Shown here in pieces: positions 22,601 through 60,727 of a stretch of DNA of 64,000 nt. The position numbers and the translations under genes were made by a program. This DNA is from Patella caerulea. Its lineage: Eukaryota. Where the stretch lies: contig JAZGQO010000002.1 in NCBI GenBank assembly GCA_036850965.1, forward strand, positions 27,060,901 through 27,124,900, read 5' to 3'. Every line of letters starts with the position of its first letter. Positions within the stretch are counted from its first letter, which is position 1. The notes beneath the pieces are model-generated. The model did no database searches and was not told the origin of the DNA. It worked only from the letters and a program-made list of their open reading frames with translations.

Positions 22601-25600
22601 TTAAAGTCAGCCATCAACATAAAACCATTGTTCTATAGAAACACATCTACTAATCAATTATACATGTAAACATCAATTCTATAAATCAACTTCATGTATT
22701 CACTGTATTTCATTAAAATAATATTTAAAAGAACAGAAACACCGCTTTCAGAAATACGTCACTTGAGGATGAATTGTTTAAATAATTGGATTCTGTTTGT
22801 GAAGGAATAAATATTAAACCCTTTAAATTTGAGAGTATTAACTGAAAACAAGAGATAGTTCTATTATAGCCAGAAATAACAAAGTTGATTAGAAAAAATG
22901 ATGTTTACATTAATAAGTATACACTCCATACTTATTCCTGAAGAAAAATTCTGAGATTGAATATCTGCAGTTAAAATAGGTTTCATTAGGCGTGATATTG
23001 ACATTCTTTCCTCATTCTTGTCTAATGGTCTCCAATCCCAGCCTACAATCACAAAATACTGTCTTCAAAACCAAATTGTCAATACTATTCCTTGGTGTTC
23101 TATGTCCAATTTACATTACCAATCATTATTAACCATCAAACCCCAAAAAACTATATTTGTTGCTGAAAATAAACCTATCTAAAAGTTATGACAGGTGAAT
23201 CCTATTCTCTATTCAAATCTAAAATTACTGCCATTATGAATAACACCTTCAGTTATCCAGATCAGTCTATAAATAATCAATCTTGTGGGGATTCTAAGTT
23301 TACTTTTTAGATTCAGTTTCTGAAAATTAAACATTTCCAATGGCATTTCAATATGCTGAATATGGTATGGATGTTTTGGGGCATAAAAGATGCACACTGG
23401 GTTTGTTATGGATGTTTTAAGGTTGCACACTGAGTTTGTTATGAATGTTTATGAAGATGGACGCTGAGTTTGCTATGGATGTTTTGGGGTATAACATGCA
23501 TGATGAGTTTGTTATGGATGTTTTGGGGTAAAATATGCACGCAGAGTTTGCTATGGATGTTTTGGTGTATAAGATGTACATTATTGAGTTTGTTATGGAT
23601 GTGTTGGGGGTAATGTTATAATCTAGTGTCAATATTCTTTAGCAATATAAATATATCATGTTTGGGATGCACCAACTTCAGACACCAGAAACTAGGTCAC
23701 TCTTTAGTAACTCTTTATCCCCTTGAAATATTCCTGATAAAGACCTGGGTAGAAATCTGTACATCAGAGAAAATGTAACAAAGATTATGAATTAATTACA
23801 AGCTAGATAAACATAACATGTACACTACCTGTAGTCATATATGGATACCAGCCAGGATCAACACCAACTGGTCTAGAATCTACAAATAATTTCTCTCTTC
23901 CTTTACTACCTCCCTTATAACGCCCTGTTGAATAATATATAGAAAATGAGAAACAAAGAAGAATTATGGACATTGCTTTTCATGTTCATGTTCCAAATTC
24001 TTTTTTACAGACTATTTCATCCCTTAATGAGAATGGATATTGAATTTATTAAAAAGAAATTTGTAGAGTGTACATTGAATTTGCCTAATTTTTTTAAAAA
24101 CACACTCTGATTAAATGTAAAGTTGGATTTACAGCAATAATAATCTTACCATGTTCTGGATTAGTCATAGTTGAGTTTGATAGTGATGAACTTAAACCAT
24201 CATTAGATGATGTTGTATGTTGACTGTGATTAGGTGATACGTTAAATCCATTCAAACTATCAGTACTGTTTAAAATATACATTTTATATATTGTTACAAC
24301 AAGAATCAAACTCTTCACTCAAAGTTATTTTTTGTCTATCAACCAGTAAAATGGCTGCTATTTGAATATAGCACACATTCCAGCACATCTGTATCATTTG
24401 AAAATGACAGGTTTTAAAACAGTTATCTGAGCTTCAAGTCATAGTTAGGCATCATCTACTGAATTGTCTTTGAAGATATAGTACATAAATATATTATTCA
24501 ACAGATACCAGTGTAATTTATTTCAGCAATCTGATTGACTGTAATCTGGAAATTCAAATGAATTATTGTATACTAATTATTACTATGACCCCTGATAAGG
24601 AATTCACATGAATTATGGTAAGTAATTAAGTGTATCACATACCTGTTCTGACAACTTGTTAAATCATGATCTATACTACCTTGTCTGGATATAGATCTCT
24701 GACGTCTAGCTTCTACAGCTCTCTGAGCACCCTGTAATCAACGTAATAAGTACAGACCAAGTCTGACATTCAGTTCAACTCTACTATCCATAGAAATTAA
24801 TGTCCTACTGGTCTGCTCCTAAACTTCCATCCATAGAACTTTAAAGAGAGTTTTGTGGTTTCCCCCTTGCTAGTGATGCAGGGCAGAGGTCCTGGTAAGG
24901 ACAGCTGTCTAGTCATTTGGATGGGACCAAAGATCGCCTGGCAGTTAAAATTCAATTTAAGAGTAAGCTGTAGTGCCAACGTCTGGGCAAAATTCAACTG
25001 ACTCATAGCACACTGTATGGCATATGTATCGACATCATTAAAATTATGTAGACTGATTTGGCTACTTACACTTACAATATCGGTCCATCATGATTTGAAT
25101 ATAAGTTGTGTACTAAAAGGGATATTGCCAGATATTGTAATTCTCCACGCAACAGCATTGTTAGCTGTCAATACCATATATATAGAGGATATTTGTTGTT
25201 TTAGAGTGAATAACATATTTTATTTCATCGAGAAGCAAGAAAACTTATATTTTCACGAATGCGTAGCATGAGTGGAAATATAAACATTTTCTTGCTTAAA
25301 GATGAAATAAAATATGTTATTCACGACAAAACAACAAATGTTCTATTTATTTTATGATTTTACAATCATTTTAGGTTTTCAACATGGACTTCATTGCTAG
25401 CCAGTGGAATAACACTTTTATTTCAAACACTTTCATTTCACTGAAAAAATGCGGTATTCCACTACTGATCATAAAATAAATATATATATATATCATCCCT
25501 ATCTATTCCTTTCTCAAAGATGGATTTATCATGTTTTAAGTCAAGTGTTTGATTATAGAACGATTATGTAGTAGGAAAAAATACATGATAAACACATTAA

Positions 25601-31600: not shown

Positions 31601-34600
31601 AATTGCAAAGCTTATAAATTGACTTGTCTCTAGCTCTTTCATTTGTTACGCAAATAATGAAAACTTTACTTACACTTCCTCAATTTCATCTCTAGTAAAA
31701 AAAAATAAATTATAAAGAAAATGAAATGAGAGGTGAGTATAAGAAAATAATGAGATGATTATAATATTAATGAACTATAATAAATATTAACAATTATAAT
31801 ATGTAGGATGTTAATAATGTATTTATCTTTAACCTACACCAGTGAGGAGTGCGATTTTCTAATGAAGAATCCAAGTTCAGAGTTTCAACAGTATAGCTGC
31901 CAGACACCGTTTATTGTTTCTATACATTAGATGGATACACAATAAATTGTAAGTAATTAAAAGTTTATGATGCATTTGAACTTATATTCTAAATTATTTC
32001 AATATATAGATTTTTGGTACATACAAATAACCTAAATAGAAAGAAGTTTATTCAAAACCTAAAATTTCAATCGTGAATTGTAAATTATTACCATGTTTGT
32101 CACGAAATTGTTCAAGTCCAAACATTCAATGGGCATTTTGTCCAAACACTAGATAGTTACAGTCCGTTATAAGTTAATAAGTTATCAACTACATAATGAA
32201 ATTGAAGTGATTATAGATGATACAAGATGCAAGACAAACTAAACAAGAGTAAGCTACGTATAATATGCAAATTAGGACAAAAACATATACAAAAATACAT
32301 ATCAATAACAAACCCATTTAGTAAATATATACACAGCTTAAAAATAAGAAACTTACAGTGGTCTGGGATTGTTTCGAGACGGAAGTTTGAATACTTGAGC
32401 ATCATATTCATCATACTCCATAAATGGAAAGCTATCATCATCATCTTCAAAATTAGATGGTGTACGGCAAGCTGTAATAAACACAACAATTTACATATTA
32501 TATCTATTCATATTATAATTTTTCATTGCATCTATCCATATTATAATTTTTCATTGCATCTATTTAAAAGAAATGAAACTGTCTTTGGTTAAAGATTATA
32601 AAATGTAGTGATAATATTTCTACATGTTGAACGAGATGGAACATATACATTCTTTGTTATTTTGTTGGCGATGTTGAACAAAAGCAAATCAATGAAATCA
32701 GTCTATTAAGTTAGATGATTAAATACTACACCATTCCCATACACATGGACATTTAAAAGGAAAACATAGAATGAGTTATTGAATGACCAAATATTGAAGA
32801 CAAAAATCAGAAACATAGTTGGAATTTAAATATCCCTTAAAGTTAAAATTCCAGATTTATTTTAGTGAAAAACTCGCGGCTGCCATGCAGGATACACCCA
32901 CATTTTTGAGAGATGGATAGAGAGAGAAAGAAATGAGGTTTAGGTCCACTCAACACAAACTAGGTCATTTCAGGACTAACTTATGGTTTAATTTTATTTC
33001 AATAATTCGCTTGCGCGTAGGGGTCTTTAGCAGTGGGAGGAGACCGGAGTGCCCCAAAGAAACCCATGAGGTTGAGAAGCGCCCCTATCTCCATGTCACA
33101 TACGCTCACACCAGGGCTCGAAACCACACCAGCAAGCCAGAGGTGACCGGTCAGCTAGACGTCGAAGCGCGGCACTCTAGACCACTAGGCCATCCCAAAC
33201 CCCCCGAGAGATGGATAGAGAACAAGCTAAAAAGAGAGGTTTTTTTCCTACAATCAAGGGCTATAATTCATGAAGTTACAATTTGATATGCACAAATATC
33301 AAAAAGAACCAAGATCTTTGGGTTATAAACATGCATTTCAAGTTTCATCAAAATCGGTTCAAACTTGTGACCCCTATAGTGTTACAAGCAAAAACTTGAT
33401 CTTTCGTATAATCAGGGGCCATAATCCATAAAGTTACAGTCTGATACATGCCAATATCGAAAGGAACAGAGATCTTATGGTTATAAACCTATATTTTAGG
33501 TTTCATTGACATCAGATAAAGATAGGTTGCCAGGCAACGAAACATACGCCCACAACAGCTAAGTCGTCCGGGCAGTCAACAAGGGTTGTCGCATATTGTT
33601 TCTTTTATCAGTAAGGAGAACATTAAGTAATTATCAGAATTGATTAGAATAGTTTTGATGGTTTGTCTGAAGGCCTTTGTCCACAAGATATTTCAAAGTG
33701 ATCAAGCGTCAGAAATTATCAGATATCACTGAAAATCAAATAGGATTCTTCGTCTCATGACCCTAACCAAAGTGTACAAATTTAAAGTCAATCTGATATT
33801 AACTTTAGCCTTTAGAGCATTCATAGGGTTTTTCAAAGTGATCAAGGGTCATAACTCTGGTAGTAATTATCGGATATCGCTGAAAATAAATAGGCTATTT
33901 TTATCATGACCGTAAATAGTGTGTATAAATTTAAAGTCAATTGGATATTAACTTTAGATTTTTCAAAGTGATCAAGGATCATAACTCTGGCAGTAATTAT
34001 CTGATATTGCTGAAAATCAATCATGACTTTAAACACCGTGTATAAATTTAAATTCAATCGGATATTAACTTTAGCCTCTAGAGCGTTCACAAGATTTTTC
34101 AAAGTGATCAAGGGTCATAACTCGGGCAGGAATTATCCGATATTGCTGACAATCAACAGGCTTCTTCGTATCATGACCTTTAACACTGTGTATAAATCTA
34201 AAGTCAATCGGATATTAACTTTAGCCTCTAGAGCGTTCACAAGATTTTTCAAAGTGATCAAGGGTCATAACTCTGGTAGTAATTAACGGATATTGCTGAA
34301 AATCAATAGGCTTCTTCGTCTCATGACCTTAAACACTGTGTATAAATTTAAAGTCAATCGGATATTAACTTTAGCCTTTAAAGCGTTCACAAGATTTTTC
34401 AAAGTGATCAAGGGTCATAACTCTGGTAGTAATTATCGGATATCACTGAAAATCAATAGGCTTCTTTGCATCATGACTTTAAACACCGTGTATAAATTTA
34501 AATTCAATCGGATATTAACTTTAGCCTCTAGAGCGTTCACAAGATTTTTCAAAGTGATCAAGGGTCATAACTCGGGCAGGAATTATTGGATATTGCTGAA

Positions 34601-37600
34601 AATCAACAGGCTTCTTCGTATCATGACCTTACACACTGCGTATAAATTTAAAGTCAATTGGATATTAACTTTAGCCTCTAGAGCGATCACAAGATTTTTC
34701 AAAGTGATCAAGGGTCATAACTCTGGCAGTAATTATCAGATATCACCGAAAATCATTAGGCTTCTTCGTCTCATGACCTTAAACACTGTGTATAAATTTA
34801 AAGTCAATCGGATATTAACTATAGCCTCTAGAGCGTTCACAAGATTTTTCAAAGTGATCAAGGGTCATAACTCTGGTAGTAATTATCGGATATCGCTGAA
34901 AATCAATAGGCTTCTTTGCATAATGACTTTAAACACCATGTATAAATTTAAATTCAATCGGATATTAACTTTAGCCTCTAGAGCGTTCACAAGATTTTTC
35001 AAAGTGATCAAGGGTCATAACTCTGGTAGTAATTATCGGATATCACCGAAAATCAATAGGCTTCTTCGTCTCATGACCTTAAACACTGTGTATAAATTTA
35101 AAGTCAATCGGATATTAACTTTAGCCTCTAGAGCGTTCACAAGAAATTGTGGACGATGGACGGACGGACGGATGGGCGGACCGACGGACAGACGGACGGA
35201 CGGGGGCGACGGCAATATACGACCACATTTCCATGTGGGCGTATAAAAATTGTGACCTGTAGACTGTTCACAAACAATTGCGGATGGACGGACGTCCCGA
35301 CGAAACAGGGGCGACGACAATATAGAACCACATGAAAATGTGGGCGTATAAAAAGGATTGTTTCTGTGTGAAGGCTTCCAGAACACTTAATGCTACAATA
35401 AAAGTAAAAGCTCTATAATATATATTTAAAAGAAATAACAACTGTTAATGTTAGTTGTCTGGTGCAGTTTAGAAAATATCACTTGCCTATTTCTTCACAT
35501 TTTAAAGTTCACTTTGCTTTTTTAAAATGACGTTTTTCGAAAAGATCACTAGCCTATTTCTCCACATTTTGATGTTCACTTCTTTGCTTTTTTAAATGAC
35601 GTTTGCTTTTAAAGACTCAGTGAAAACTATGACCTTTCCTTTTTAAACATTAATCACTAACCTTTTAGTTTGGGTTTTTCTGCTAATAAATCTAACTGAA
35701 AATCAATGACAATCATGCATTAAAGAGTATGTTTAAGAATAATTAATACAGTGCAGCACTGGATGATTTTGGTTGGCACCACGATCCATTCACTTGATCT
35801 GATATTTATGGGGTTTTTTTAATGAAAGGTGTGGGGGGGTAATGTCCTACCGTTCTGCTCTGACTGAGTTAATGAAGATGGACTTATGCCGCACAATGTG
35901 CTATGAGAGAAATTTTGCACTATTGCCTACTCTTATATCAAATTCCAACTGCCAGGGGATCTTTTACGTGCATGACAATTTACACACAGACTTGGTTTTT
36001 CATCCCATCCCAATGAATAGAATGAACAGACAAGGGGAAATCACATCTGAAAATCACGATGAACTTTCTCGTGCAATGCAGGGATCAACCGCCCGACCTC
36101 TAGGCTAGAAAGCCAGCATGGCACCTACTTAGCCAGCGTGGTTCCAGATATGTATTTTGTTTATTGTAATTACTATTATGCTATTATAGACTTCTTACAG
36201 AGCATATTGTAGATTCAACTCTTTTACTTTCAATATCATCAAAATCAAATAAATTTTTATTAATATCTAACACTTACATATTCTTGTGGTGGTTTTATTC
36301 TTGGTATAAATGACATATTCTTGAAATTCTCAATTTGATTTTTTGAAATATAAAAACTGAAAAAAATCAAATTTGTATTAAACAACAACAGATAATTATC
36401 ACTTATTTATGGCTACAGAGTATATTCTAAACCAAAATATTCAAATGTTTTTTTTTGTTACAGTTACTTTTATTTAAACGGAATTTTACAAATGTGTGAG
36501 AGAATGGGTTTTAACGCCACTCAACACAAACTAGGTCACTTCAGGAATAACACGTGGTTCAATTTCATTTTAATAATTTGTTTGCCCATAGGGGTCTTTA
36601 GCAGTGGGAGGAAATCAGAGGACCCAGAGTAAACCCTTGAGGATTGACGGGTGACCCTACTCCTTGTCACATATACCAAGGTAATCAAAGCCACGCTATT
36701 TGACTCAATGACAGACTTTATGATACAGCATGCACAAGCTAACCATTGGGTCATCCCCCACTAACATTTCCATTTGTTTCAATTTGTTTTATGATACTTC
36801 GTTATTTTTGGTTTTAGATAATCCCCCCCGACACCCTTAATACTTTGAATAATGATCTAAAGAAAATTCATGATTGGTCCGAAAAGTGGAAGGTCGAATT
36901 CAACCCAGATAAAACTATCAGTCTTACATTTAGTAGAAAAAACAACCCAACCTTGCTTGTCGCTTCTTTTAATGATATCCCATTATATGACACAAATACC
37001 CATAAACATTTAGGTGTAATTTTTAACAAACATTGTAAGTGGGACAATCACGTGGATTATTTAATTAGTAAAACCTCAAACATGGTCGACTGTCTGAGAA
37101 GTTTGAAATATAGACTATCATGTAAGTCATTGAGTATTTTGTATAAATCTTTTATTCTTTCTATTTTTGATTACGCTTATATAGTCTGGAATAATACTAC
37201 TGAAATAAATTCGCAAAAATTAGAAAAGCTCCACTTGGATGCGTTACGAACGATAACCGGCCTGCCTCGTGGAACCTCCCATAATGCACATTATACTGAA
37301 TCCGGATTCTCATCTTTATCAGTGTGACATCAAGCTCATAAATTAACATTGTTTTATAAAATGGTAAATAACATAGCCCCCAGTTATCTTTGTTGTTTTA
37401 TCCCACCAATTATCTCTTCCAGCAACCCTTACAACCTACGTAACTCCAACCACATTACACAAATTAAATGTAAAACTAATATTTACAAAAACTCCTTTTT
37501 GCTGTCTGCAATAAAAGCGTGGAATAGTTTAGACAATGAAATAAAAAAAGCCTCGTCTGTCTCTGATTTTAAAACTAAACTGTATCCAACCTTATTTCCC

Positions 37601-40600
37601 AAAGTCAACAAACTGTTCTACTACGGTGAACGACAATTCCAAATTATCCACTGTAAACTACGTAATAATAAAAGTGATTTAAGATACCATAAGTTCCTCG
37701 ATGTGACTGTGATCTCGACCTAGAAACCACCGAACACTTTTTACTCTACTGTCCATACTACGCACTTCAGCGAAATAATACCATTAATTTATTACCAATG
37801 TATTTTAGAAATATCACTTGCCTACTCTATGGTAATGCCGAATTATCTTTAGACGTCAACAGCGATATTTTTAAATGTCTTTACAAATATATTAAAGATA
37901 CGAAACGTCTTACTCTGTAAAATACAACCTTGGGGTGAGGATTATGATTATAATTATTATTATTTTTTTATTCATTTTTTTATTATTTTTTTTTATTTCT
38001 TTTTTTATTCATTTTTTTAAAAAAAAAAAATTTATTTTTTTTATTTATTTATTTATTTTTTTATTTATTTATTTTTTTTAAATTAATTGATTTATTTTTC
38101 TTTTCCTTACTTTTTTATTATTATTCATTTTTTTTTCTATCATTTTTCTTATATATTTTTTTTTATTATTATTATTTTCTAATTATTTATTTATTTACTC
38201 AAAATTAAAATCTTATTTATTTGTTTAATTGTACCATAACTAAAACAAAAAATTAGTTTTTGTCTGTATCATATATAATTCGACATTGTACATGAATTAT
38301 ACACCCAAACCTGAAGGAAGCAAATTAATATAAGCCTACTTGACTTGTTTTTGTATCCTATTATTTATGCTCTTTTATACTGTATAATATTCTCGAAATA
38401 AATACTGTTTATACCAATTTGTTTTAGATCTCTAGAACAATTAAAATTTCTGATAGAGAAAATTCTAATATCTTAATTATCCTGACATATAACTGGCTGT
38501 CTATAATCAAGGTCAAAAAAGGTACATGGAAGTCAAATACACACCTAGAATACAATTTTCTAAAACCATGTATTTTGATATCAATGGAGTGACCATCGGA
38601 ATAAAGAGAATGTACATAACATGATATTTACCTATGATTCATCCAATGTGGTATATTATAATCATCTCCTATCTCAAATGTTGTCTGGGCATCTTTACTA
38701 TGGAACTGTTAAACAAAAATATACATATTCTAGTGTTTTGTACAGTATGAAACTTATTTCTTTGTTTAATGCAAGTGGATTGTCTACTGGAAGGTTTAAA
38801 GTCTGATGAGGAATTAATTAAATGTATTGAATTATATAACAGGAACATATACCTTAAATAGTGGTGCTGCATGCAATGGTTGTTCTCCCATACAAACTAA
38901 ATCACTTCCAACACCTTAAACATACATCATCAAATAATATTTACTCGGCTTACTAGTAATTTATACATCAAATAATAATATGCATACAATCATATGTAAT
39001 ATACTAATACATCATACATCAAATTACAATCTCTTCATAATATATATCATATATCAAATAACAGCAATATTTCTTTTGCTGACAATATAGAGGGCAAAAT
39101 ATTACCGATTTTTCAAAAAGGAAATTTAATAATTTACCTACCACAATCAATAGTACGTTGTTTAGTAATATTAGTTAATTCACGGTCAACTTCAAATACA
39201 CCTGGACCTGGTGTTATCACTACTGACACTTTACCTGTTCTATCAAAATTACGATCCATATAATGGGTCTCAAATACTAAAAAATAAATATAACCAACAT
39301 TTGAATTAGAATACTACTGAATAAAACAAAATACTTATAAAACATAAACCTGTATTATGATAATACAAATACCCATCTTTACGGGGCGATACTGTACACT
39401 ACCTGGGCACTACAATATAATATCTAACAATATAACCACAAATACACATTTTGTCTAGCTCATTATGTTTTTCATTTCATTAAACTGTTCAGAGTATATA
39501 AGCTGAATTTGGGATTATTAGGTGTTTCATGAATAAATCCTACGCCAGCAATACCATTTCTTAAAGAAAACAGACTGAAATATCAAATAATGACATGCCT
39601 ATTATCAATAAAATAAGACACAATAAAATTTTCAAAACTCTATTTTGTAGGGCTACTCCAAGTTTAAATGATTTATAATCAAAATGAACATACTTACAAT
39701 TTAAAGACATGTTTAGAGTTTCTAGAAAGTTGCCTTGAGCAGCTGTAGAGTTATATCCCATGGGTATATGTTTTCTGTTTTTACGATGATAATGTAAGAC
39801 ACGATCAGCATATTTATTAAAGAGAATGCGTAACTCTCGTAACGTATTTGACCATTCTTCATACATATATCTTTCATTCTGAACTACCACTCTGAAAAAT
39901 GTCAGTAAACATATTTTTACTAATAAACCATAACATATACTTATGGAACAACAATTACTGATTGAAAATGTTGAGAGAATACACTTTGAAACATCGCCTA
40001 AATAAATCAGTAATTGTTCTTCCATAAGAATTTGTTATAGTTTATTGTTCTATCCAGTTAATGAATGTCTCTAAAAGATCATATTTTTACACTGATGTCT
40101 TTGATATACAACATCATGAGTTAAAAAAAATACAAGCTGATAATTTCCCATAGTCATTACCTATAAAAATCTTCATATATTCTTCCTTTACAATCAGTTT
40201 GTAAACAATCTCGAATATGTTCTGGGAAATCATCTGAAAATAAAATGGAATAAGTTACTGTAATAAAATATCCATTAATTTGTGCTAATGTGTATACTCA
40301 TTTTTTCTTTGTTGACAACATACAGTTATAATAGTGATTGAAAACAGATGGCAAGTAATAACACTGATGCTATATTAAAAATGGAAGACAAACCCATAGA
40401 CTGTACATCATAGAATGTTCTGGAGAATAATACTATAGTAACATCATGACAACAATTTTGTTCCTGTAATAAAAATAAAAAGTCCATTTTTCATTTTATT
40501 TCATAAAGTATGTCTCATAAAGAGTTATATTTATACAGTCCCATGAAATTCTAATATCAAAACATAACTCTGGAAGTGACTATTGAATTAAGTTAATAAG

Positions 40601-42218
40601 GTTTCTTCTCCTGAATAAAGTAACCATTCCACAATAATTTATATATTTTAGAAAGATAGAACAATAATTGTAGCCTCAGGAGTACAGATTTGGTTGGCCG
40701 TCAGTATGACAGATCTATTGATGTACAATAAACCTACCTTCCATTTGAGAAATAGATCTGTAAGAAAACCATTAACAGCTTTTTCAAAATACAGATCTCC
40801 GCTAATATCAAAATCCCACATTTCAGATGACATCTGGATAAAAATTTGAACAACAGCTGTGGAAGAACGATAGACTACCTGAAAATATGACAAGCCAACA
40901 GTGAGGCTGATGGCCCCCCGCCGAAATCCCAAAATAAATAGATGACACATATTAATAAATCGCACATTTATTTTTTTCAAACGTATCGAGCAATCAAACT
41001 GTCCACAAAGTGTCATCCAAAAGAGTTTTAAAAAGAAAAATGCTAAAACCGACGAGAAAAATGAAAATGTACCCTAGTTAGGGGGACCAAAAAGGAAGAC
41101 AAAAGGGCCCCCACGCTTGACAAAAGGGCCCCTCTGGCCAAGGGAAAGGGCCCTCGTGTCCAAGTCAATCGTTTCTATACACTGTTACTGTCGAATCCAT
41201 CAATCATGATGAACCTAAGTTATCTTGTCCCAAAGTATCAACCAATCAAATTGCTTATCTCTGCTTAACCTTGGCGGAAAATGCCCATCTTCGAACTCCA
41301 TCAAGGCATTGATCTAATAAGCATATACACCAAGTTTGAACATTTTAACTCAATTAGAAGGAGAGTTATTGTGTTCCAAAGTCTCGACCAATCAAATTGC
41401 GTATCGCTCTGCTTACCCTGAGCAGAAAATGCTCATTATCGAACTTAGTCAAGGTATTACTGTAATGAAACTATACACCAAGTTTCATCACTCTCACTAA
41501 TTAGAAGTAAAGTTATCGTGTCTAAAAACATCAACCAATCAAATTGCTTATCTCTGCTTACCCTAAGCGGAAAATGCTCATCTTCGAACTCCATCAAGGC
41601 ATTGACCCAATATACACCAAGTTTGAACATTTTAACTCAATTAGAAGGAGAGTTATTGTGTTCCAAAGTCTCGACCAATCAAATTGCGTATCGCTCTGCT
41701 TACCCTGAGCAGAAAATGCTCATTATCAAACTTAGTCAAGGTATTACTGTAATGAAACTATACACCAAGTTTCATCAATCTCACTTAATTAGAACTAAAG
41801 TTATCTTGTCCCAAGGCATCAAGCAATCAAATTGCTTATCTCTGCTTACCCTAAGCGGAAAATGCTCATCTTCGAACTCCATCAAGGCATTGACCTAATA
41901 AGCATATACACTAAGTTTGAACATTTTAACTCAATTAGAAGGAGAGTTATTGTGTTCCAAAGTCTCGACCAATCAAATTGCGTATCGCTCTGCTTAGCAG
42001 AAAATGCTCATTATCGAACTTAGTCAAGGTATTACTGTAATGAAAGTTATCGTGTCCCAAAGCATCAACCAATCAAATTGCTTATCTCTGCTTACCCTAA
42101 GTGGAAAATGCTCATCTTCGAACTCCATCAAGGCATTGACCTAATAAACACATACACCAAGTTTGAACATTCTAGCTCAATTAGGAAGATAGTTATTGTG
42201 TCCCAAAAAGTGAGACGG

Positions 42219-49349: not shown

Positions 49350-49407
49350 TTTTAATCTGTGTTGTAACAGCCTTTAGTTTATATTTCTCACGGACTAAAC
49401 CAAACAT
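49350..49407 (-). CDS. DEPDC5: Candidate initiator exon of DEPDC5 (MFGLVREKYKLKAVTTQIK...). The donor (GTTCAA) is weak, so the exact 3' end is uncertain.
   Basis: The ATG at 49407 (minus strand) opens a frame with the 'KYKL' motif, compared with human 'MRTTKVYKLVIHKK'. The phase-1 donor after 'QIK' would join exon 48547-48634 to give 'N-ADIVLNPK'. No better candidate lies upstream within 3 kb. Confidence 0.3.
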
Positions 49408-49800
49408 GTGCTTGACAAACTCACTGCCAAACTTTATCTACGGTAACAACAGCTTTTGTATTGATTTTTCAAGTGAGTAGGCCTACTAGTATGATGCATT
49501 GGGGTATTTAATTGTACAATGGATTTTGTTAACCGGAGGTAATTTCAACAAACAGGTAGGTTTTTAATAACTGTAGTTTACATACATAGTAGAGCCAAAA
49601 AGCATAAATTATGGGTTATCAGCCAATTCGGGCAAGGTTCTTGACTCAGAAATTATTACAGCTCATTATTTTAATGGCAATTGTTACATTATCGGAGATT
49701 TTTATAAAGAGTTAGCCATTCTTGAGTGACAGTTCAAAAACAGATGATAAAAGAAGTAAAAAATTTCAGTACCATTGGGGCTGCAATTCAATTCGTATTA
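49390..49800. repeat. ~410-bp segment duplicated at 51790-52006 plus 54473-54680, where the DNA transposon interrupts it
   Basis: Direct alignment of 'gtgcttgacaaactcactgccaaactttatctacggtaacaacagcttttgtattgatttttcaagtgagtaggcc...' in both copies. The second copy resumes after the transposon at 'ggttcttgactcggaaattattacagctcattatt...'. Confidence 0.8.
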
Positions 49801-49854
49801 CATGTACATTTATTTTTCACTACAAATTAAAAAATGAGACTTTTCATATATATA

Positions 49855-50170
49855 TCTCCTTACTGCTAAATGGCCGCATGTCAGTCCATGTGAACGCCTG
49901 AACAATGTAAATGAACATCTTAGTGAGAAAATAAGAGTTTGATTACCTCGCTAGAACCAGTATGTCCGAAACAACACGCTGTTCTAAACTGTATCCATGG
50001 CATCAACCAAGTTGTTTAGAAGACAGAGACGTATTTTTTAACAGCGTGTTGTGTCGGTCATATACTGGTTCTTATAGCGAGTTAAGCAAGGCCTTATTTT
50101 CTCACTAAGATTCATGTTCATTTACATTGTTTAGGTGTTCACATGTGGCCGTTTAGCAGTAAAAAGTTGC
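49855..50170. mobile_element. MITE-like inverted-repeat element, about 315 bp, with ~120-bp imperfect TIRs
   Basis: 'ttactgctaaatggccgcatgtcagtccatgtgaacgcctgaacaatgtaaatgaacatcttagtgagaaaataag...' at 49860-49960 pairs with its reverse complement at 50060-50170. Sits about 450 bp upstream of the candidate DEPDC5 start. Confidence 0.7.
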
Positions 50171-52413
50171 CCAGTAAAATTGACTGGGGCAGATTCCAGT
50201 TTCGACACGAACGGTATTGAATGACATGGGACCTGGCAAGTGTAATGAGACCTGCATTCAAATTCAGAGCTGAACTAGAGACTTAGCTACTTTAAACTAA
50301 AATGTTTTTCAATAAAAAGAACAACAATTGATTGCTAGCTATCTAGTTCTGTTGTGGACGACATTAGACTGTACTTTTACTACTGAGACCCAGACCAGAC
50401 GATTGTTCTGATCGACAGAAGGCCGGAGTCCATGTAGAGATCAGAGAGGGCTTATTATTAGGCTATCAATCACTGATCAGTCAAATATATTGAAACAAAA
50501 TTTTTAATTTTATGTAGGACTTCATGTGTCTCTTTAATGTACTAGCGTGCAAAAATGCATAATTTCTTATTACCTTTCTGTGTCTTGCTATGAAGCGATA
50601 ATTTATAGGTTTTCATTTTCTAGGTTTCTGACACTACACTACTGACACTGACAGTCGACCGTTCGCCTCCATTTTGACTACTAGAGTTACCTGCCCTTTA
50701 GTGTTTAGAATATTATCTAAATATAAAGGGCCAATCTCATACTCTATGTCCAATCTCGATTAGGCCTATATATTGGAGAATAAAACTTCGTAATTTTGTG
50801 TTAAAGGCCCTAAAAATTATCTACCTAAAGGGGGGGGGTACGCGGCACAGTCTACTGTAGGTATTTAAGAGTTATGGTCGGCATATCTGGGGGGGGGGGG
50901 GCAATTACGGGTCTGACTTAATTAAACCCACCAGATTTCACTGTATTGAACTCTGAATAAAAACGGGCAAACAACGAAATCTTAAAGGGGTTACATGTCT
51001 GCATTAGTGATTTTGATGTTCACGTCCAAACGACTCAATATTTTAAGCTGAAATTTTGAGATAAGGTAAAAACACCATTCATATATTTTGGCGCCTAAAT
51101 TTCATACCTAGCCTACATGGAATTTTATTTTAGAGACTATTAAAATCTGGATTGTCCGGGCCTTTAATTTAAGAGCACCTACAAATTTCGTACTCTTGAT
51201 AGCGAAATGTAGCCTATAAGGGTAGGGGTTCTGTTTACAATTCGTGACCTTGACTTTAAGCTTATTTATCATAGGGCCATACATGTATCTACAATTTGAC
51301 AAGCTCCCATTGAGACTGATTTACATTGGTAGGCCTATTATCCCATTTGTTTATAGTATAAAAGTACATTTAAATAAACTTTGATATGTATAGTATACTC
51401 GTATACACAGACACGTATAGGCTTACCGTATCGGATATAGGCTAGGCCTAATTAACTAATATTAAAAGACGTTTTATGCCTGCTGAGGCGCTGGAGGCGC
51501 GAGCCTCCTCGTAAAAATAAAATCAAAGAAATTGAACAAATAAAACGGGAGAAAAATGCTATAGGCCTAACCAATGAGAAAAAAGAAATGTACCGTAGTT
51601 GGGGGGTGGGGCTAAGGACAGACAAAAGGCCCCCGAGTCTGACAAAAGGCCCCCTCTGGCCCGTGAAAGAGGGCCCTCAAATAGTATAGCCTCCTCGTGA
51701 AAGAAAATCAAAGAACTTGAACAAATAAAACTGGGAAAAATGCTAAAACCAATGAGAAAAATGAAATGTAGGCTACCCTAGTTAGGAACATGTGTTTGAC
51801 AAACTCACTGCCAAACTTTATCTACGGTAACAACAGCTTTTGTATTGATTTTTCAAGTGAGTAGGCCCTATGATGCATTGGGGTATTTAATTGTACAATG
51901 GATTTTGTTTAACCGGAGGTAATTTCAACAAACAGGTAGGTTTTTTTATAACTGTAGTTTACATAGAGCCAAAAAGCATAAATTATGTGTTATCAGCCAA
52001 TTCGTGCAAATTTGGGTGAAACCATTGTGCAAATTTGGGGAAAAGCATGAAATTTGGCACAAACATACTTTAGACTATACTGATCAATCGTGGGGTAAGG
52101 GCCAAAAATATTTCCCACTATTTTTCAAAATGGCCGCCATTTTCAAAATGACCACTAATTATGCTTTAAAATGTTGAGGAGATTGATGATATTGGTTTAC
52201 GGTACCTATATATTGCTTTATGTTATCTCAGAATCATCTTGAATTGCATACTGATGAATGTTTTGATGTTTACAATATCATTTGGTGATTCAAGATGGCT
52301 GCCGAATTCAAAATGGCCGCCGATTCCATAAAAATGTTTAAATGATAGTGAGTAATATCGTCCTGTAGTTTTAATCAAAACTCAATACCAAAATCATCTG
52401 AATATAAATTTAG

Positions 52414-53254
52414 GTGAATGCTTTTTATCTGTTAAAGGTGTTTCTGAAATCAAGATGGCTGCCAAATAAGGTTGCCACGCTCAAAATGGCTGCCAAGTGT
52501 TATATGCTGCGAACTGTTGACACAGATGTAGTTGTCCTATCTACAGCATTGTTCAACCGGATCAATGTGACCGAACTTTGGGTGTCATTTGGTACTGGTA
52601 AGAATTGCAGACTAATTCCAGTTCACACCATTTCCAAGACATTAGGTCCACAGAAATCAATGTCTCTTCTAATGTTCCACGCCTTCACCGGTCGTGACCA
52701 GACTTCTTTCTTTCTTAATCGAGGAAAGAAAACTGCCTGGCAAACAAGCAAAGTATACAAGGATGCTGACGAATCCTTTGCAGTTCTTAGTAGAGCTCCA
52801 CCATCAGTAGAAGAGTTGCATAATCATGTCAACAATTGGGAGATTTGTTATCCTCGTGTATGACAGGACAAGTTCGTGTGAAAGTGTTGATGAAGCCCGC
52901 CAAGAACTTTTTACTCATAAGGGAAGGGCAATTGAGCCAATCCCACCAACCTCAGCAGCACTTTTTCAGCATGCGAAAAGAGCTCTATTTCAGGCCGCCT
53001 ATGTATGGGGCCAAGCCTTGCTACGGACCCCCGAGTTGCCAGACCCATCAGATTGGGGATGGAGAAAAGGAACTTCAGGCATGTGGGAGCCTCTATGGAC
53101 AACTCTACCTGAGGCTTGTAAATCCTGCCAGGAGCTAATCAAATGTGGCTGCAATGTAGATAAAGGATGCCGTGGTCGATGCAAATGTGTCAAGGCAGGG
53201 GTTGCATGTACAACGTACTGCAAAGGCCATGGGGATTGTGAACGCCCCTCTTAG
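52414..53254 (+). pseudogene. Frameshifted ORF of a widely distributed metazoan transposon-type protein. N-terminal region '...RLIPVHTISKTLGPQKSMSLLMFHAFTGRDQTSFFLNRGKKTAWQ...'. Cys-rich CxC-like C-terminus 'CKSCQELIKCGCNVDKGCRGRCKCVKAGVACTTYCKGHGDCE'.
   Basis: Two overlapping listed ORFs, 52414..52863 and 52826..53254, are out of frame with each other, which implies one frameshift. The 'HAFTGCD..SxFxGxGKK.AW' motif and the Cys cluster are typical of a repetitive TE-borne ORF seen in many invertebrate and fish genomes. This is pattern recognition, not a database hit. Confidence 0.55.
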
Positions 53255-53380
53255 TGCCAGAAGGGCATTTGGTAGTGTGACTTCACTTATTTTGGCCTTT
53301 CGACATTTGAATGACACATACCAAATGAGGTGAGAAGCAACAGTAACTTGGAACTGTATATGATATAAGAGAGGTTGCGG

Positions 53381-53533
53381 AATCCCGTACGGCAGGCATT
53401 TTCATACGGGATACAGCATGTTTTCATAGTGATTCAATGAACTGTGACCCATAGTTCATTGAATCACAATGAAAACATGCCACATCCCGTATGAAAATCC
53501 TGCCGTACTGGATTCCGCAACCTCTGTATTATC
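53381..53533. repeat. Near-perfect 153-bp palindrome. Hairpin with a ~72-bp stem and a ~9-nt loop.
   Basis: gaggttgcggaatcccgtacggcaggcattttcatacgggatacagcatgttttcatagtgattcaatgaact-gtgacccat-agttcattgaatcacaatgaaaacatgccacatcccgtatgaaaatcctgccgtactggattccgcaacctc. Confidence 0.9.
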
Positions 53534-53799
53534 TTTCTAGTTAAGACTGAGTATTATTGATCAAGGTACTAATCTGCAACAACGTCTGTCATTTTAAATT
53601 AAATGACCATATTGAATTATAATTAATTTTCTGATTAAGCTAGTTTAAACATAAGAATCCACATCAAAACTAAAGTTTGTGGCCAGTAAATTCACATGAA
53701 AGGGACTCGTTTATGGTACCTGGTGAACATTTTTGATTCGAAAGCCATGTTGGATTTTGAATCCCCTGTTTAGTTCGATTTGATCTAATAAGCCCTTAC

Positions 53800-54330
53800 A
53801 ATAAGCCAAATTACTGTAATAATGGCGGCCATTTTCAATTTGGCGGCCATATTGGATTTTAGAACATACCTTGTTTACTTGAACTTAAAAAGATATGTCG
53901 ATCCTACATTTAGATGTATATTTAGTCAATTGTAAGCGCATCATGCATAATGAACATCATAATTACTGTAATAACGGTGGCCATTTTGAATTTGGCGGCC
54001 ATATTGGATCTTAGAATATCCTGTTTACTTCAATATGGTCAGATATGTCATATCCTGCATGAAAATGTATATTTAGTTAATTGTAAGGACACTACAGATA
54101 ATAAGCTCTTGCTAAAAACAATATTACTGTAATAATGGTGGCCATTTTGAATTTGGCGGCCATATTGGATTCTAGAGTACCCTGGTTACTTGAATTTGGT
54201 CAGATATGTCAGATCCTGCATTTATATGTATATTTGGTCAATTCTAAGCACATCACAGGTAATAAGCTCTTACAGTAGACAAAATTACTGTAATAATGGT
54301 AGTCATTTTGAATTTGGCGGCCATATTGGA
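53800..54330. repeat. ~120-bp x 4 tandem array inside the DNA transposon. Each unit has paired ATGGCGGCCAT motifs ('taataatggcggccattttgaatttggcggccatattggat').
   Basis: Four direct units. Related isolated motifs: 'aaaatggccgccatttt' (52131), 'caagatggctgccgaattcaaaatggccgccg' (52288) and 'caagatggctgcc...caaaatggctgcc' (52449-52492). Confidence 0.8.
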
Positions 54331-56749
54331 TTTACAGACAGAAACTCAATAGGCCCTTACCCACAAGTTAATAAGCACGTAAAAAGCTACCTTTGTGCCA
54401 ATTTTCACGCTTTTCCCCAAAAGTGCACAATTTTCTTGTATTGACTCACCATATTGCAGTACTACAAGGTTCTTGACTCGGAAATTATTACAGCTCATTA
54501 TTTGAATGGCAATTGTATTTAAAGATACATAATGGGAGATTTTTATAAATAGTTGGCCATTCTTGCTATGCCAGTTCAAAAATAGATCATAAAAGAAGTA
54601 AAAAAATTCAGTACCGTTAGCTTATTCGGTTTTAGATGGGTCTGCAATTCAATTCGTATTACTATGTGGCACCGTTCAGTTAAAATGGAATTAAATAGGA
54701 ATTTACTGCTGATTTGATATCAATATTAATGAGGTTGGATGGATTTTAAACATGTTTAAGATTCACGAGAGTTTAATATTAGAATGGTCCATTAAATTTA
54801 ATATCGCCATTATAATAATATGCTTCAGTCAGTACTGGACGGGATTTTTCCAAGCCAGGTTGGTTTAATCTTTTATAATTGAGTAGCATTCTACATGTAT
54901 ATCCGAGCTCTGCAAGGTTTTTATTGTTGTTTTGTTGTTAATTCTAATATTATTAAATCAGAGACATATAAACCAATACAGTTTAATTAGTGCTTCTGTT
55001 GGTAATTGATGAGGGGCGCATACTTTGCTTGTAATGCTATACAAGACTCGGCTTGCCTTTTTTACAAAGGTCAGATGAATATAGCTGCTTCAAGAAAAAG
55101 TATTATTTGTTATATTTATCCTAAATGAGAATTAATAAATATCCAGACAAGCATCACAAAAAGTAAAATTTACATTTTTTCGCCGGGTTCTATGATCAGA
55201 TGGTACGTTTATGAAATACACGTGGGTTTACTGTTAATTTGCACTTAGTTTAAATTCATTCAGGCGGCTACGTTGTTTTTGAAGATCTTGCAATGAATTT
55301 GGAAATAATAAAGAAGTGAATGGCCTAAGTGAATGGCCTATGAGCAACTGCATATGCAGTTCTTGGTGTTAGAAGCAATTTAAACACAGATAGGCATAAT
55401 ATTCTAAATTCTATCCGTACAATGACTGGTAACCAGCAACTACTTTAAAGCCCCAATAACACTCTTGTTGTTACTAATTAATATATCCCAATCTTCATTC
55501 TGGTCAACAAATTGTATTATTTTAGAACATTCCAATTAAATGATGATATAAATTTCATCTTAACACACCTATTTGGAAAAATTGGAAAAATTCAACCAAT
55601 TGATTTGAAAAGTCTAACGTAAGCCTTTTCAAATGTGACTTGGATTTTGAAATATTTTCGAACCATCTGGACAAGTAAAATAGGTTGTAATGGATAATTT
55701 ACACAACAGGTAGGACACTTAAACATCTAGTACTTAGAATATGGGTATTATTTATTTTCTGGAGCTACCAAGCCACCAAGAATGTTATTGTCCCTTTAAG
55801 ACAAGGGTGATGTGCTCATGGGATGATGCACGACTTACAATACGGGCAGCTTTGTTTTGGGTGTTCTGCAGTATTTGGAGCGATTTGTTTGGAAGACCAT
55901 AAGCAAGTTGTAGTAGTCTAGTTTGGATGTCATAAAGACGAAGTTTACATTTTTTTTATAGAGATGATAGTTACCTCATTTACAAATATTAGTAATGTGA
56001 CCAAGCAGAGACATGTTAGTTAAGTTTAATCAATATTCTATTCAATAAGCTGAATTGGATTGAACAACAGGCAAAGGCCTATATGGTGAACATATGTACC
56101 AACAGTGTGTTACAAACAAATGATATATTACCTGGAGTGTAGTTTAAGTTTTAAATGTTAAAGTGTTAAAATCTCTTGCTGTCTTTCACGTTTGCACTAT
56201 TTCGCACATGTTAGAATTGGTATTATCTGAAAGATCAGGACTGCCATAAATATATAAGATCAGGTCAGTTGTAATATTTTGTTTAAGGTGGTGTAGATTA
56301 TTTTTGACATTTGTTTTGGGGGCAGAGTATGCTGGACATATGAAAAATAATATTTTATGTAGAATTACGCTTAGGACACTCTTTTGTTTTACTAATAAAA
56401 TGGTAAAATAAGTGATTGTTTAAATTACTAGCCTTTTTTCTTAATTGACAATGGATAATATTGTCTTTCCTATTTCCAGTATTATAACAGCGTAGTGGGC
56501 TTATTACAGGATACCCACGTGAAAGTCACAATTTAAGTGCACTTAACGTTTGTGCGGTTTTAATAATTTCAGGTAAGTTGTTCCGAAGTTTAATTGTGCA
56601 GGGAAAGAACAATTAGAATATGAACTTGGTTTACAAAATGGTAGATTGAGGTTCAGATTTTCATTATGAAGGTTACAATTTGACACTGACAGATAAATTA
56701 GACTTAGGTTTAACAAAATGGTAGATTGGGCTCAGATTTTTATTATGAA

Positions 56750-58400
56750 GGTTATAATGACGGTTCAAATTTCTTAAAGGCTTCAGACAGATAAGTGGGA
56801 CTTAGATTATTCTTTATTTTATGTAAATAATTTAATTTGTGTTTTATTCTGCGATTAGACAATGATTCCCAACCAAGCTCTTTGTATAAATTATTTTTAG
56901 ATGAATTTCTTCTGAGGCCAGTTATTATTCTACCTGCTTCAGTTTGTACACTTTCTAATAGTTCAAAATCCTTCTTAGAACAGTTATTCCATACAATATC
57001 AGCATATTCTAAGATGGGACCAATAAAAGCAAGATATAATATATTAAATGAAATTCTATTAATTTTATATTTCAGTATACGCAAAATATTAGGTCAACCT
57101 CAAGCTTTCTGGACCCTGTTTCTCGAAATCTTAACTAAAGATACAGTCCAAATTTTAGTAGATATTTCAGTTTTAATTGGCTAAGCACTAAAATGAATCT
57201 AATATTATCCAATCAAATTAACAAAATGTGGATTTTATCTTAGTTAAAATTTCGTGAAACAGGTCCCTGATATATATTTGAAACATATTCTGACCATAAT
57301 GCATTAGACTGAAAAGTTAATCCCAAATGACAATGAGTAGTTACGTTTTCAATTTTTTGTATTTTCAAAAATAACGTCTGGATGGATTGTAGTTTTCCGA
57401 GTAAAAGTAATATGTTTAGTTTTATTTGGGTTAAAAGTTACACACCATTGTTTAGCCCAAGATGAGATAATAATCAGATCTTCAGTTATAGAGTTCGCGC
57501 TACTAAGATGATCATTATGAATAATTGTAACAGTTGCATGTTGTTAGTAATATTATCGGAGATTTCATTTAGATAAATTAAAAATAGGAAAGGACCAAAC
57601 ATACGTCCTTGGGGAACACCAGAATCGGTATGTTTGATTTGAAACCTTCGAAAACTACACATTGTTTTCTATTAAAAAGTGTCCAATCCATTTACATAAT
57701 ATTTGATTCATTCCATATTGTTTTAATTTAGACAATAAACCTATATGACAAACTTTATCAAAAGCTTTTGATACATCACAAAATATAAATCGAATTTGCT
57801 ATCCTTTATCAAGATTAATAATTATAACATCTTTAGGTTGAAAACCAGACATATGCTTATATAACAGGTTATTTTCTTTTATAAAATTATAAAGCTTTTT
57901 GAATAAGATTTTCTGTAGTATTTTACATAATGAGCATGTTAATGAAATTGGTCTATGTTGTGGGACTGAGGGTCACACTTTCCTTTATACACTGCAATGC
58001 TAATGTGAAGTCTATGTTAGAATCGAATTGAACGCCAAGATTCTTAAAGATGGAATGTCAGAATTACCACTGAATTAGTCTCTAATTTACAGAGTTGATT
58101 ATTACGACCAAATTTGGTAACTTCTTTTTGTCATCGTTAAGTTTATTCACATTACTAGCCAGAGATGACTGCTTTATAATATATATAATTCCGAGTCATC
58201 TGCGTACAAATGAAAGTCAGTCCCATGGTTACGGATTATATGTCATATGGGAGTTGTGTACACAGTAAAAAGTAATGTCCTAATACTGTTCTGGGGGACA
58301 CCATTATTGAACCCAATTGATTCAGAAACAGTTTTGTTAACTGAGGCCATTTGAGTACGTTCATAGAGATAAGATTAGAACCACCCTAGTGTCGCATCTA
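56750..58400 (-). mobile_element. Degraded CR1-like LINE fragment in reverse orientation. Contains an RT core with frameshifts plus the C-terminal region, and a 3' UTR with a ~75-bp tandem duplication at 56620-56760.
   Basis: Listed ORF 56752..57084 (-) gives 'YLAFIGPILEYADIVWNNCSKKDFELLESVQTEAGRIITGL...'. The reverse complement of 57560-57640 encodes 'GVPQGRMFGPFLFLIYLNEI', the canonical RT motif. Confidence 0.7.
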
Positions 58401-58959: not shown

Positions 58960-60727
58960 CTGTCCGTCTGTCTGTCCGTCACACTTTTTGGGACACAATA
59001 ACTCTCTTCCTAATTGAGCTAGAATGTTCAAACTTGGTGTATGTGTTTATTAGGTCAATGCCTTGATGGAGTTCGAAGATGAGCATTTTCTGCTTAGGGT
59101 AAGCAGAGATAAGCAATTTGATTGGTTGATGCTTTGGGACACGATAACTTTAGTTCTAATTAAGTGAGATTGATGAAACTTGGTGTATAGTTTCATTATA
59201 GTAATACCTTGACTAAGTTCGATAATGAGCATTTTCTGCTCAGGGTAAGCAGAGCTATACGCAATTTGATTGGTCGAGAATTTGGAACACAATAACTCTC
59301 TTTCTAATTGAGTTAAAATGATCAAACTTGGTGTATATGCTTATTAGGTCAATGCCTTGATGGAGTTCGAAGATGAGCATTTTCCGCTTAGGGTAAGCAG
59401 AGATAAGCAATTTGATTGGTTGATGCTTTGGGACACGATAACTTTAGTTCTAATTAAGTGAGAGTGATGAAACTTGGTGTAGAGTTTCATTATAGTAATA
59501 CCTTGACTAAGTTCGATAATGAGCATTTTCTGCTCAGGGTAAGCAGAGCGATACGCAATTTGATTGGTCGAGACTTTGGAACACGATAACTCTCCTTTTA
59601 ATTTAGTTGAAATGTTCAAACTTGGTGTATGTGCTTATTAGGTCAATGCCTTGATGAAGTTCGAAGATGAGCATTTTCCGCTTAGGGTAAGCAGAGATAA
59701 GCAATTTGATTGGCTGATGCTTTGGGACACGATAACTTTAGTTCTAATTAAGTGAGATTGATGAAACTTGGTGTATAGTTTCATTATAGTAATACCTTGA
59801 CTAAGTTCGATAATGAGCATTTTCTGCTCAGGGTAAGCAGAGCTATACGTAATTTGATTGGTCGAGAATTTGGAACACAATAACTCTCCTTCTAATTGAG
59901 TTAAAATGTTCAAACTTGGTGTATATGCTTATTAGGTCAATGCCTTGATGGAGTTCGAAGATGAGCATTTTCCGCTTAGGGTAAGCAGAGATAAGCAATT
60001 TGATTGGTTGATGCTTTGGGACACGATAGCTTTAGTTCTAATTAAGTGAGCGTGATGAAACTTGGTGTATAGTTTCATTATAGTGATACCTTGACTAAGT
60101 TCGATAATGAGCATTTTCTGCTCAGGGTAAGCAGAGCGATAAGCAATTTGATTGGTCGAGACTTTGGAACACAATAGCTCTCATTCTAATTTAGTTAAAA
60201 TGTTCAAACTTGGTGCATATGCTTATTAGGTCAATGCCTTGATGGAGTTCGAAGATGAGCATTTTCTTCTAAGGGTAAGCAGAGATAAGCAATTTGATTG
60301 GTTGATGCTTTGGGACACGATAACTTTAGTTCTAATTAAGTGAGAGTGATGAAACTTGGTGTATAGTTTCATTACAGTAATACCTTGACTATGATCGATA
60401 ATGAGCATTTTCTGCTCAGGGTAAGCAGAGCGATAAGCAATTTGATTTGCCGAGACTTTGGAACACAATAACTCTCCTTCGAATTGAGTTAAAATGTTCA
60501 AAATTGGTGTGTCTGCTTCGTAGGTCAATGCCTTGATGGAGTTCGAAGATGAGCATTTTCTTCTTACGGTAGGCAGAGATAAGCAATTTTTGGATGACAC
60601 TTCGTGTTCAGTTTGATTGGTCGATACGTTTGAAAAAAATAAATGTGCGATTAATTACTATGTGTCATCTATTTATTTTGGGATTTCGGCGGGGGACATC
60701 AGCCTCACTGTTGGCTTGTTTAAATTT
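58861..60727 (-). mobile_element. Satellite-carrying nonautonomous element, copy C, in reverse orientation. (GTCT)n tract at 58900-58980 and about 5.5 units of 294-bp tandem repeats at 59040-60600. Insertion is supported by a paralogous empty site.
   Basis: Flank 58440-58860 plus the post-insertion flank 60728 onward ('tttaaatttacaaata') is collinear with 61240-61640 ('...caatgttgatttaaattgacaaata'). The 61240-61640 copy lacks the element. Termini are the reverse complement of copies A and B. Confidence 0.75.

Follow-up and report, generated by a model that had tools for sequence, protein, structure and literature searches.

The long hairpin at positions 53369-53526 of the 64-kb stretch of Patella caerulea DNA analysed here (64,000 nucleotides, hereafter the window) is very probably a decaying copy of a 158-bp non-autonomous palindromic MITE that lies nested in an older, dead transposon. 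This reading is built on its structure, an insertion polymorphism between paralogous copies of the host transposon, the occurrence of copies with identical ends at dispersed loci, the flanking TA dinucleotides and a lack of coding capacity. The self-complementary unit is a near-perfect inverted repeat of 158 nt, and it is 96.2% identical to a consensus of eight copies. The left arm (53369-53446, plus strand) is a TIR that fills the whole half-element, begins with GAGAGGTTGCGGAATCCCGTACGGCAGG, and contains three (G/A)TACGG motifs. These TACGG repeats may be transposase-binding sites. A 3-nt loop (ACC, 53447-53449) lies at the centre of the palindrome, and the reverse complement of the right arm (53450-53526, minus strand) begins with CAGAGGTTGCGGAATCCAGTACGGCAGG. 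The window copy has kept 71 of the 76 bp of the family-consensus stem, with 5 mismatched pairs, and the 1-nt bulge formed by the C at 53397 is a feature of the family. A first-pass annotation of this DNA had described a hairpin of 153 nt at 53381-53533, with arms of ~72 bp, 3-4 mismatches and a 9-nt loop, immediately downstream of a transposon ORF. These figures are slightly off. The unit extends over 158 nt from 53369 to 53526, its arms measure ~77 nt (77-78) with 5 mismatched pairs and 1 bulge, and the loop has 3 nt instead of 9. Nor is the hairpin immediately downstream, as the stop codon of the ORF is at 53252-53254 and the hairpin starts 114 bp further 3'.

RNA folding, one of the checks that had been proposed, was run and confirmed the long near-perfect hairpin. 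The minimum free energy (MFE) of positions 53355-53545 was -123.8 kcal/mol, with a single uninterrupted stem-loop. Dinucleotide-shuffled sequences had a mean of -39.3 kcal/mol (sd 3.7), giving a z-score of -22.7, and none of the 200 shuffles was equally stable. The same structure was obtained when the segment was folded as single-stranded DNA (-78.1 kcal/mol, z = -22.1). The stability of the hairpin is far above chance expectation. Stop codons were present in all six frames of the 158-bp element, which is thus without coding capacity. Searches with the arms (up to 3 mismatches) and blastn-short searches with the hairpin found no further copy of the arms in the 64-kb window.

The window is AT-rich, with a GC content of ~30-40%, and it contains many tandem repeats and fragments of retroelements. 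A minus-strand self-comparison revealed at least four other self-complementary segments, at 19078-20041, 25178-25350, 39922-40046, and 49860-50162, with identities of 73-84% over 125-976 bp. Palindromic segments are common here, and the hairpin is not very unusual. The segment at 49860-50162, with arms of ~130 nt, looks like another palindromic MITE. A 146/294-bp satellite array occupies 58987-60589 (5.5 copies of the 294-bp unit, 94% matches), and related units with similar spurious ORF translations are found at 9566-9928 and 41518-41898. In addition, the 317-aa open frame at 34293-35246 consists of ~57-aa tandem repeats and is probably a translated satellite, not a gene, and two adjacent ORFs at 36845-37723 look like the C-terminal end of a reverse transcriptase of the non-LTR (LINE) type.

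An empty site was found in a second contig. In the contig L002 (ENA assembly ERZ26858995), the repeat around the hairpin is present twice, as inverted copies that are ~90% identical to positions 52015-53366 and 53527-53593 of the window. In both copies, the equivalents of 53366 and 53527 are directly joined and the 158 bp are absent. Since both host copies run through without the hairpin, the hairpin is separate from the host repeat. The empty site reads ...ACTGTACATGTTA|TTATCTTTCTAG..., and in the window ...ACTGTATATGATATAA is followed by the element (GAGAGGTTGCGG...CCGCAACCTCTG) and then by TATTATCTTTCTAG.... At the right junction, the fit to a TA target is exact: the right TA flank, a putative target-site duplication, lies at 53527-53528, and the onward sequence TATTATCTTTCTAG matches the empty site exactly. 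The left TA flank, likewise a putative target-site duplication, lies at 53366-53367, as indicated by the alignment of eight junctions, TA statistics, and the empty site. Compared with the empty site, the left junction contains 3 extra nucleotides (TAA or ATA) in an AT-rich stretch, so the insertion site in the window is not reconstructed base-perfectly. The extra A at 53368, between the left TA and the element, occurs only in the window copy among the eight aligned copies. The empty site comes from a paralogue or a different sample, with host copies ~10% diverged, and need not be an orthologous allele; formally, the L002 lineage could instead have lost the element by a precise deletion. In L002 itself, the segments 3722-4578 and 6021-6889 show the host element duplicated in inverted orientation over a large stretch, the two ORF copies being separated by tandem repeats; this duplication could be real or, given the 2x coverage, an artefact of long-read assembly.

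The host element is an insertion of 2455 bp at 52010-54464 (plus strand), ~90% identical to L002 and L001, with CAA at 52007-52009 and again at 54465-54467. Positions 49403-49635 match 51787-52009 (92%) and positions 49633-49805 match 54465-54667 (78%). Because the two flank matches adjoin there, the flanks of the host are contiguous in a paralogue 2.4 kb upstream (49403-49805). The CAA is present on either side of the host, and one empty-site paralogue is internal to the window; this is a single instance, in which 3 bp can match by chance. A left subterminal inverted repeat (52024-52155, plus strand) bears AAAATGGCCGCC motifs and pairs at 74% with an imperfect right one of ~130 bp (54299-54431, minus strand). 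Tandem repeats of 161 bp, ~3.4 units, lie at 53786-54340 (plus strand), and each bears TGGCGGCCATTTTGAATTTGGCGGCCATATTGGAT. The motif AAAATGGCCGCC (complement GGCGGCCATTTT), which we take to resemble a YY1-type binding motif, recurs many times in opposite orientations at the ends of the host, at 52100-52500 and 53720-54340, with the right-end copies located within the 161-bp repeats.

The ORF of the host (52486-53254, plus strand, stop codon included) is a pseudogenised remnant with a +1 frameshift near 52830 and a 5' deletion of ~500 bp relative to L002. It spans the C-terminal two-thirds of a FEN/XPG-like nuclease and a Cys-rich tail. Its best match is a hypothetical Patella caerulea protein, with 95% identity, and there are homologues in Mytilus, Holothuria, Myxine, corals, and insects, and the family (homologues P0001-P0120) is metazoan-wide, multi-copy, and ~420 aa in length. 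Sequence-profile searches of this family against Pfam and PDB gave no match. The AlphaFold model of the full-length homologue P0046 (pLDDT 81.5) matched the folds of T5 5'-exonuclease, Rad2/XPG, and XRN in Foldseek, with E-values down to 3.5e-4 and a probability of 1.00, and in the family alignment the acidic motifs DG, EEAD, and DTD are conserved, as is a Cys-rich C-terminus. These results suggest that the family encodes a predicted FEN/XPG/T5-exonuclease-like nuclease. An XPG-type nuclease remnant with a Cys-rich tail, as indicated by the P0046 model match and the conserved Cys-rich C-terminus, is a feature that the host shares with AcademX elements, and the 3-bp CAA flanks may be a further likeness. 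It differs from them in that its outermost termini are not clean inverted repeats. Neither the 2.45-kb host nor the homologues of ~420 aa, whose gene calls are possibly fragmentary, contained an Academ-type DDE transposase domain. The host is plausibly an internally deleted non-autonomous AcademX derivative. As the host is plausibly AcademX-derived, the earlier label of a transposon ORF appears reasonable, although the ORF is a frameshifted and truncated remnant within an insertion bounded by TIRs.

The palindrome is dispersed as a family. Six-frame peptides of the hairpin were concatenated and searched against a protein collection that includes spurious ORFs from eukaryotic contigs (ENA assemblies). 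In total, 42 distinct predicted ORFs were matched, and tblastn places a stretch of each on the hairpin. Among these ORFs, 317 of the 339 significant pairwise similarities were confined to the element-derived stretch, indicating that their flanks are unrelated. The copy number is thereby bounded loosely at no fewer than 42, each copy lying within an ORF of at least 150 aa. All nine of the contigs fetched carry the element amid unrelated flanks, as seven full-length or nearly full-length copies and two more divergent ones, and their similarity to the window is restricted to 53357-53548. The unrelated flanks exclude that these loci are assembly duplicates of one locus. The whole palindrome is present at L003-L009 (ENA ERZ25070167), with 84-93% identity, while L011 and L012 (TARA metagenome ERZ28653815) contain one divergent copy with an internal duplication and one truncated copy. 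No further chance copies were found in the ~145 kb of flanking DNA that was fetched.

Element length is constant among the copies, and individual copies carry other changes. In L004, the MITE forms a tandem arrangement of 1.9 copies (10131-10440) whose duplication took in 10 bp of flank (TAATAGTTTA); the copy in L006 contains a 65-bp internal insertion (7259-7323) bounded by a 7-bp GTACGGC repeat; and that in L003 has a 10-bp deletion. These variants are typical transposon debris. An exact 22-mer match in JGI metagenome contigs (L010) was rejected as chance, the locus being GC-rich and bacterial-looking with no surrounding palindrome, and an exact 22-mer scan of viral contigs gave no match. 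In the nine fetched contigs, translation of the called gene with table 11 does not give the protein used as query. Because the ORFs cross stop codons in the element, the source assemblies probably used another genetic code in gene calling.

The ends of the family were defined by aligning eight copies with their flanks, namely the window copy and the seven of L003-L009. The left junction is TA|(G/C)AGAGGTTGCGG, with TA in all eight copies and one substitution each in the terminal hexamer of L006 and L009. The left end reads GAGAGG in five copies, GACAGG in one, and CAGAG in L007 and L009. The right junction, CCGCAACCTCT(G/C)|TA, was found in six of the eight copies, the other two being one base off (AA, TG). 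Read inward, the right end is CAGAGG in six copies, and in L007 and L009 both termini are TA|CAGAG. Given a TA dinucleotide frequency of 0.081 in this DNA, finding TA at 14 or more of 16 flanks has a probability of ~5e-14. A CAG terminus inside TA is usual for Tc1/mariner/pogo elements, and the target of the human element Made1 is also a mariner-type TA. Its small size, TIRs over the whole length, TA duplication, CAG-type terminus, and lack of an ORF together make it reasonably probable that the MITE belongs to the Tc1/mariner type (Stowaway/Made1-like). No autonomous element that shares the termini was found in the rest of the 64-kb window or in the ~145 kb of the fetched loci, and Pfam searches of 10 MITE-containing ORFs, including single-arm matches, for an adjacent transposase were negative; the sole significant Pfam match was Solute_trans_a in P0130 (residues 8-92), in an exon-like part outside the MITE-derived stretch. 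Because no autonomous partner was found, we infer the superfamily only from the TA flanks and the CAG-type terminus. A different superfamily, either another family reported with 2-bp target-site duplications or PIF/Harbinger with a TWA duplication, is unlikely. It would agree with the missing partner, with left termini that are mostly GAG instead of the CAG typical of Tc1/mariner, and with the 3-nt readings such as TTA...TAA that can be made in single copies. However, a 3-bp (TWA-type) target duplication was rejected, as the two sides mismatch as direct repeats in all five copies examined in detail, whereas a 2-bp TA fits 14 of 16 flanks, and the right terminus as well as both termini of L007 and L009 read TA|CAGAG.

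The eight-copy consensus is a nearly perfect 158-nt palindrome with an MFE of -142 kcal/mol. Its centre is GAACTGTGA-C-TCATAGTTC, and three asymmetries are shared by the family: the terminal G/C, a central G/A, and a left arm that is longer by one C. Compared with this consensus, the window copy has 6 one-sided substitutions, 2 of which are CpG transitions; 5 pairs are broken and there are no compensatory changes. As the six differences are uncompensated, pairing at this locus shows no sign of selection. The six substitutions are as predicted by neutral decay after insertion, which argues against selection for pairing here.

Across the family, a second pattern was observed. In the eight copies, 93.8% of the cells are paired, and in 24 pairs the only departures are unpaired cells. 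Two-sided changes affect 9 pairs and 13 cells, compared with 3.3 +/- 1.4 pairs and 3.8 +/- 1.6 cells in 500 shuffles, none of which had as many. Counted per copy against the consensus, 11 of the 13 compensatory cells are in L008 and L009. Four of the nine mirrored pairs lie at CpG-palindromic sites, at which transitions can readily be mirrored, and the other five are non-CpG. In L008 (2888-3044) and L009 (10124-10281), a change from GGAATCC to GGACTCC is mirrored by one from GGATTCC to GGAGTCC, and in L009 GAGG to GAGC is accompanied by CCTC to GCTC on the opposite arm. These symmetric substitutions are not predicted by simple neutral decay and need an explanation by subfamilies or arm conversion. 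As a lead, not a result, the mirrored substitutions might reflect subfamily structure, in which the TIRs of a source element changed in concert, or copies were born independently from variant parental TIRs, and one-sided decay followed. It is unlikely that the palindrome is actively maintained during propagation, either by arm-to-arm correction via an extruded hairpin or by selection on a hairpin intermediate or RNA. If this were true, the family would propagate or function via its folded form.

Three other origins of the hairpin were weighed against the nested MITE. A local, non-mobile inverted duplication, for instance by a replication template switch, would explain why the arms are not repeated within the 64-kb window, and fold-back replication errors can create palindromes. 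However, the complete palindrome occurs with the same ends and TA flanks at seven or more unrelated loci. The copies also share the extra left-arm C, the central G/A, and the terminal G/C, and because these family-specific asymmetries are common to the copies, the palindrome is older than this insertion. The first-pass annotation had foreseen that many dispersed single arms, together with a lack of small RNAs, would point to a trivial inverted duplication of a MITE. It is instead the complete palindrome that is dispersed, which identifies it as the mobile unit, and a local duplication is thus extremely improbable. It is just as improbable that the hairpin belongs to the structure of the host transposon itself, serving as a replication origin, a transposition hairpin, or a signal for 3' processing. 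Such a part might be expected from its location inside the host element, 114 bp 3' of the ORF stop, but it is absent from both L002 host copies with a clean junction, and the element is found at other loci without the host. The earlier suggestion of a replication or transposition structure of the transposon fails on the same two L002 copies.

A functional small-RNA locus, either an hpRNA/endo-siRNA source or a miRNA precursor, perhaps MITE-derived and kept for diced regulatory or silencing RNAs, is very unlikely. The extremely stable fold would suit such a locus, as would the pairing-preserving two-arm changes in some family members and a sub-threshold resemblance to miRNA precursors on the minus strand (MIR6140, mir-1397, bantam). 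Palindromic MITEs are also known to have founded miRNA families (PMC1784062; PMC9641971). However, an Rfam scan of window positions 50000-57000 at a permissive E-value found no family at threshold, the best match being MIR6140, which scored 63.7 bits where the gathering score is 140. Matches of this kind to long plant and animal miRNA models are far under the gathering scores and reflect generic long hairpins, as any long hairpin is expected to give them. Furthermore, the 77-bp stem far exceeds that of an animal pre-miRNA, all six substitutions are one-sided with 5 pairs broken and none compensated, and the copy lies within a dead transposon, outside any recognisable gene, and is one among many similar decaying copies. 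The nested palindromic MITE, which the first-pass annotation had listed among its possibilities, is the reading borne out by the empty site in the host paralogue, the dispersed palindromes with the same ends, and the TA flanks.

The nested MITE may have arisen in the following way, in which we infer the superfamily, the mobilisation in trans, and any fate as RNA. Because its two TIRs adjoin at the centre, the element as a whole is palindromic. Both identical ends would be recognised by a transposase, most likely a Tc1/mariner/pogo one, whose gene would lie elsewhere in the genome. The MITE would be excised and then integrated at a TA, which would be duplicated on either side. The window copy appears to have landed in the 3' non-coding part of the older, already degenerate 2.45-kb transposon, and would have acquired its six substitutions after landing. 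The potential to form a hairpin is a consequence of the architecture of the MITE and did not evolve at this locus. A transcript, if made, would fold into a duplex of ~77 bp that could be cleaved by Dicer-type enzymes.

With a length of 158 bp (below ~600 bp), TIRs, no coding capacity, dispersed copies with the same ends, and a TA duplication with an empty site, the element has the characters of a MITE. The closest architectural parallel is Made1, an 80-bp mariner-derived element in which a 6-bp spacer separates two TIRs of 37 bp and from which mir-548 arose (PMC1784062). Both elements are non-coding, have TIRs that make the whole element a palindrome with a tiny spacer, occur in many dispersed copies, and would form a stable hairpin if transcribed (PMC1784062). 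They differ in size, 80 bp compared with 158 bp here (77-78-nt arms plus 1-3 nt), and Made1 has an autonomous parent, Hsmar1, and documented miRNA products, neither of which is known for the family described here. The likeness is one of architecture, and sequence similarity is not expected. The element also resembles Stowaway-like and Tc1/mariner MITEs in its small size, TIRs, TA target-site duplication, lack of an ORF, and nesting in repeats, and the origin of such an element through internal deletion of a Tc1/mariner element is documented in a mosquito (PMC3814204). However, Stowaway-like MITEs typically have short TIRs (10-30 bp) and an unrelated interior, while here the inverted repeat is the entire element. 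Long inverted repeats that nearly fill the element and can form a hairpin or cruciform are shared with Foldback (FB) elements. The arms of FB elements are hundreds to thousands of bp long and variable in length, with tandem subrepeats. By comparison, the arms here are 77 nt, fixed in length, and without tandem subrepeats, and the TA flanks point to integration of the Tc1/mariner type. The absence of tandem subrepeats in the arms and the constant copy length speak against a Foldback element.

These results call for caution in annotation, as a near-perfect 77-bp hairpin beside an ORF mimics a regulatory RNA or a transposition structure, yet here it is a nested MITE copy. The hairpin in the window is an ordinary genomic parasite of a known type and not a special RNA gene, a role for which there was no support. 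The host may be of more interest to transposon specialists, since it combines a probable AcademX-derived non-autonomous element with a widespread metazoan family of FEN/XPG fold that has no Pfam model. The TA-flanked palindromic MITE family of limpet (patellogastropod) genomes is apparently undescribed so far, and its consensus can be used for repeat masking in limpets, for insertion-polymorphism markers, and as a pre-filter for calls of novel miRNAs and hpRNAs.
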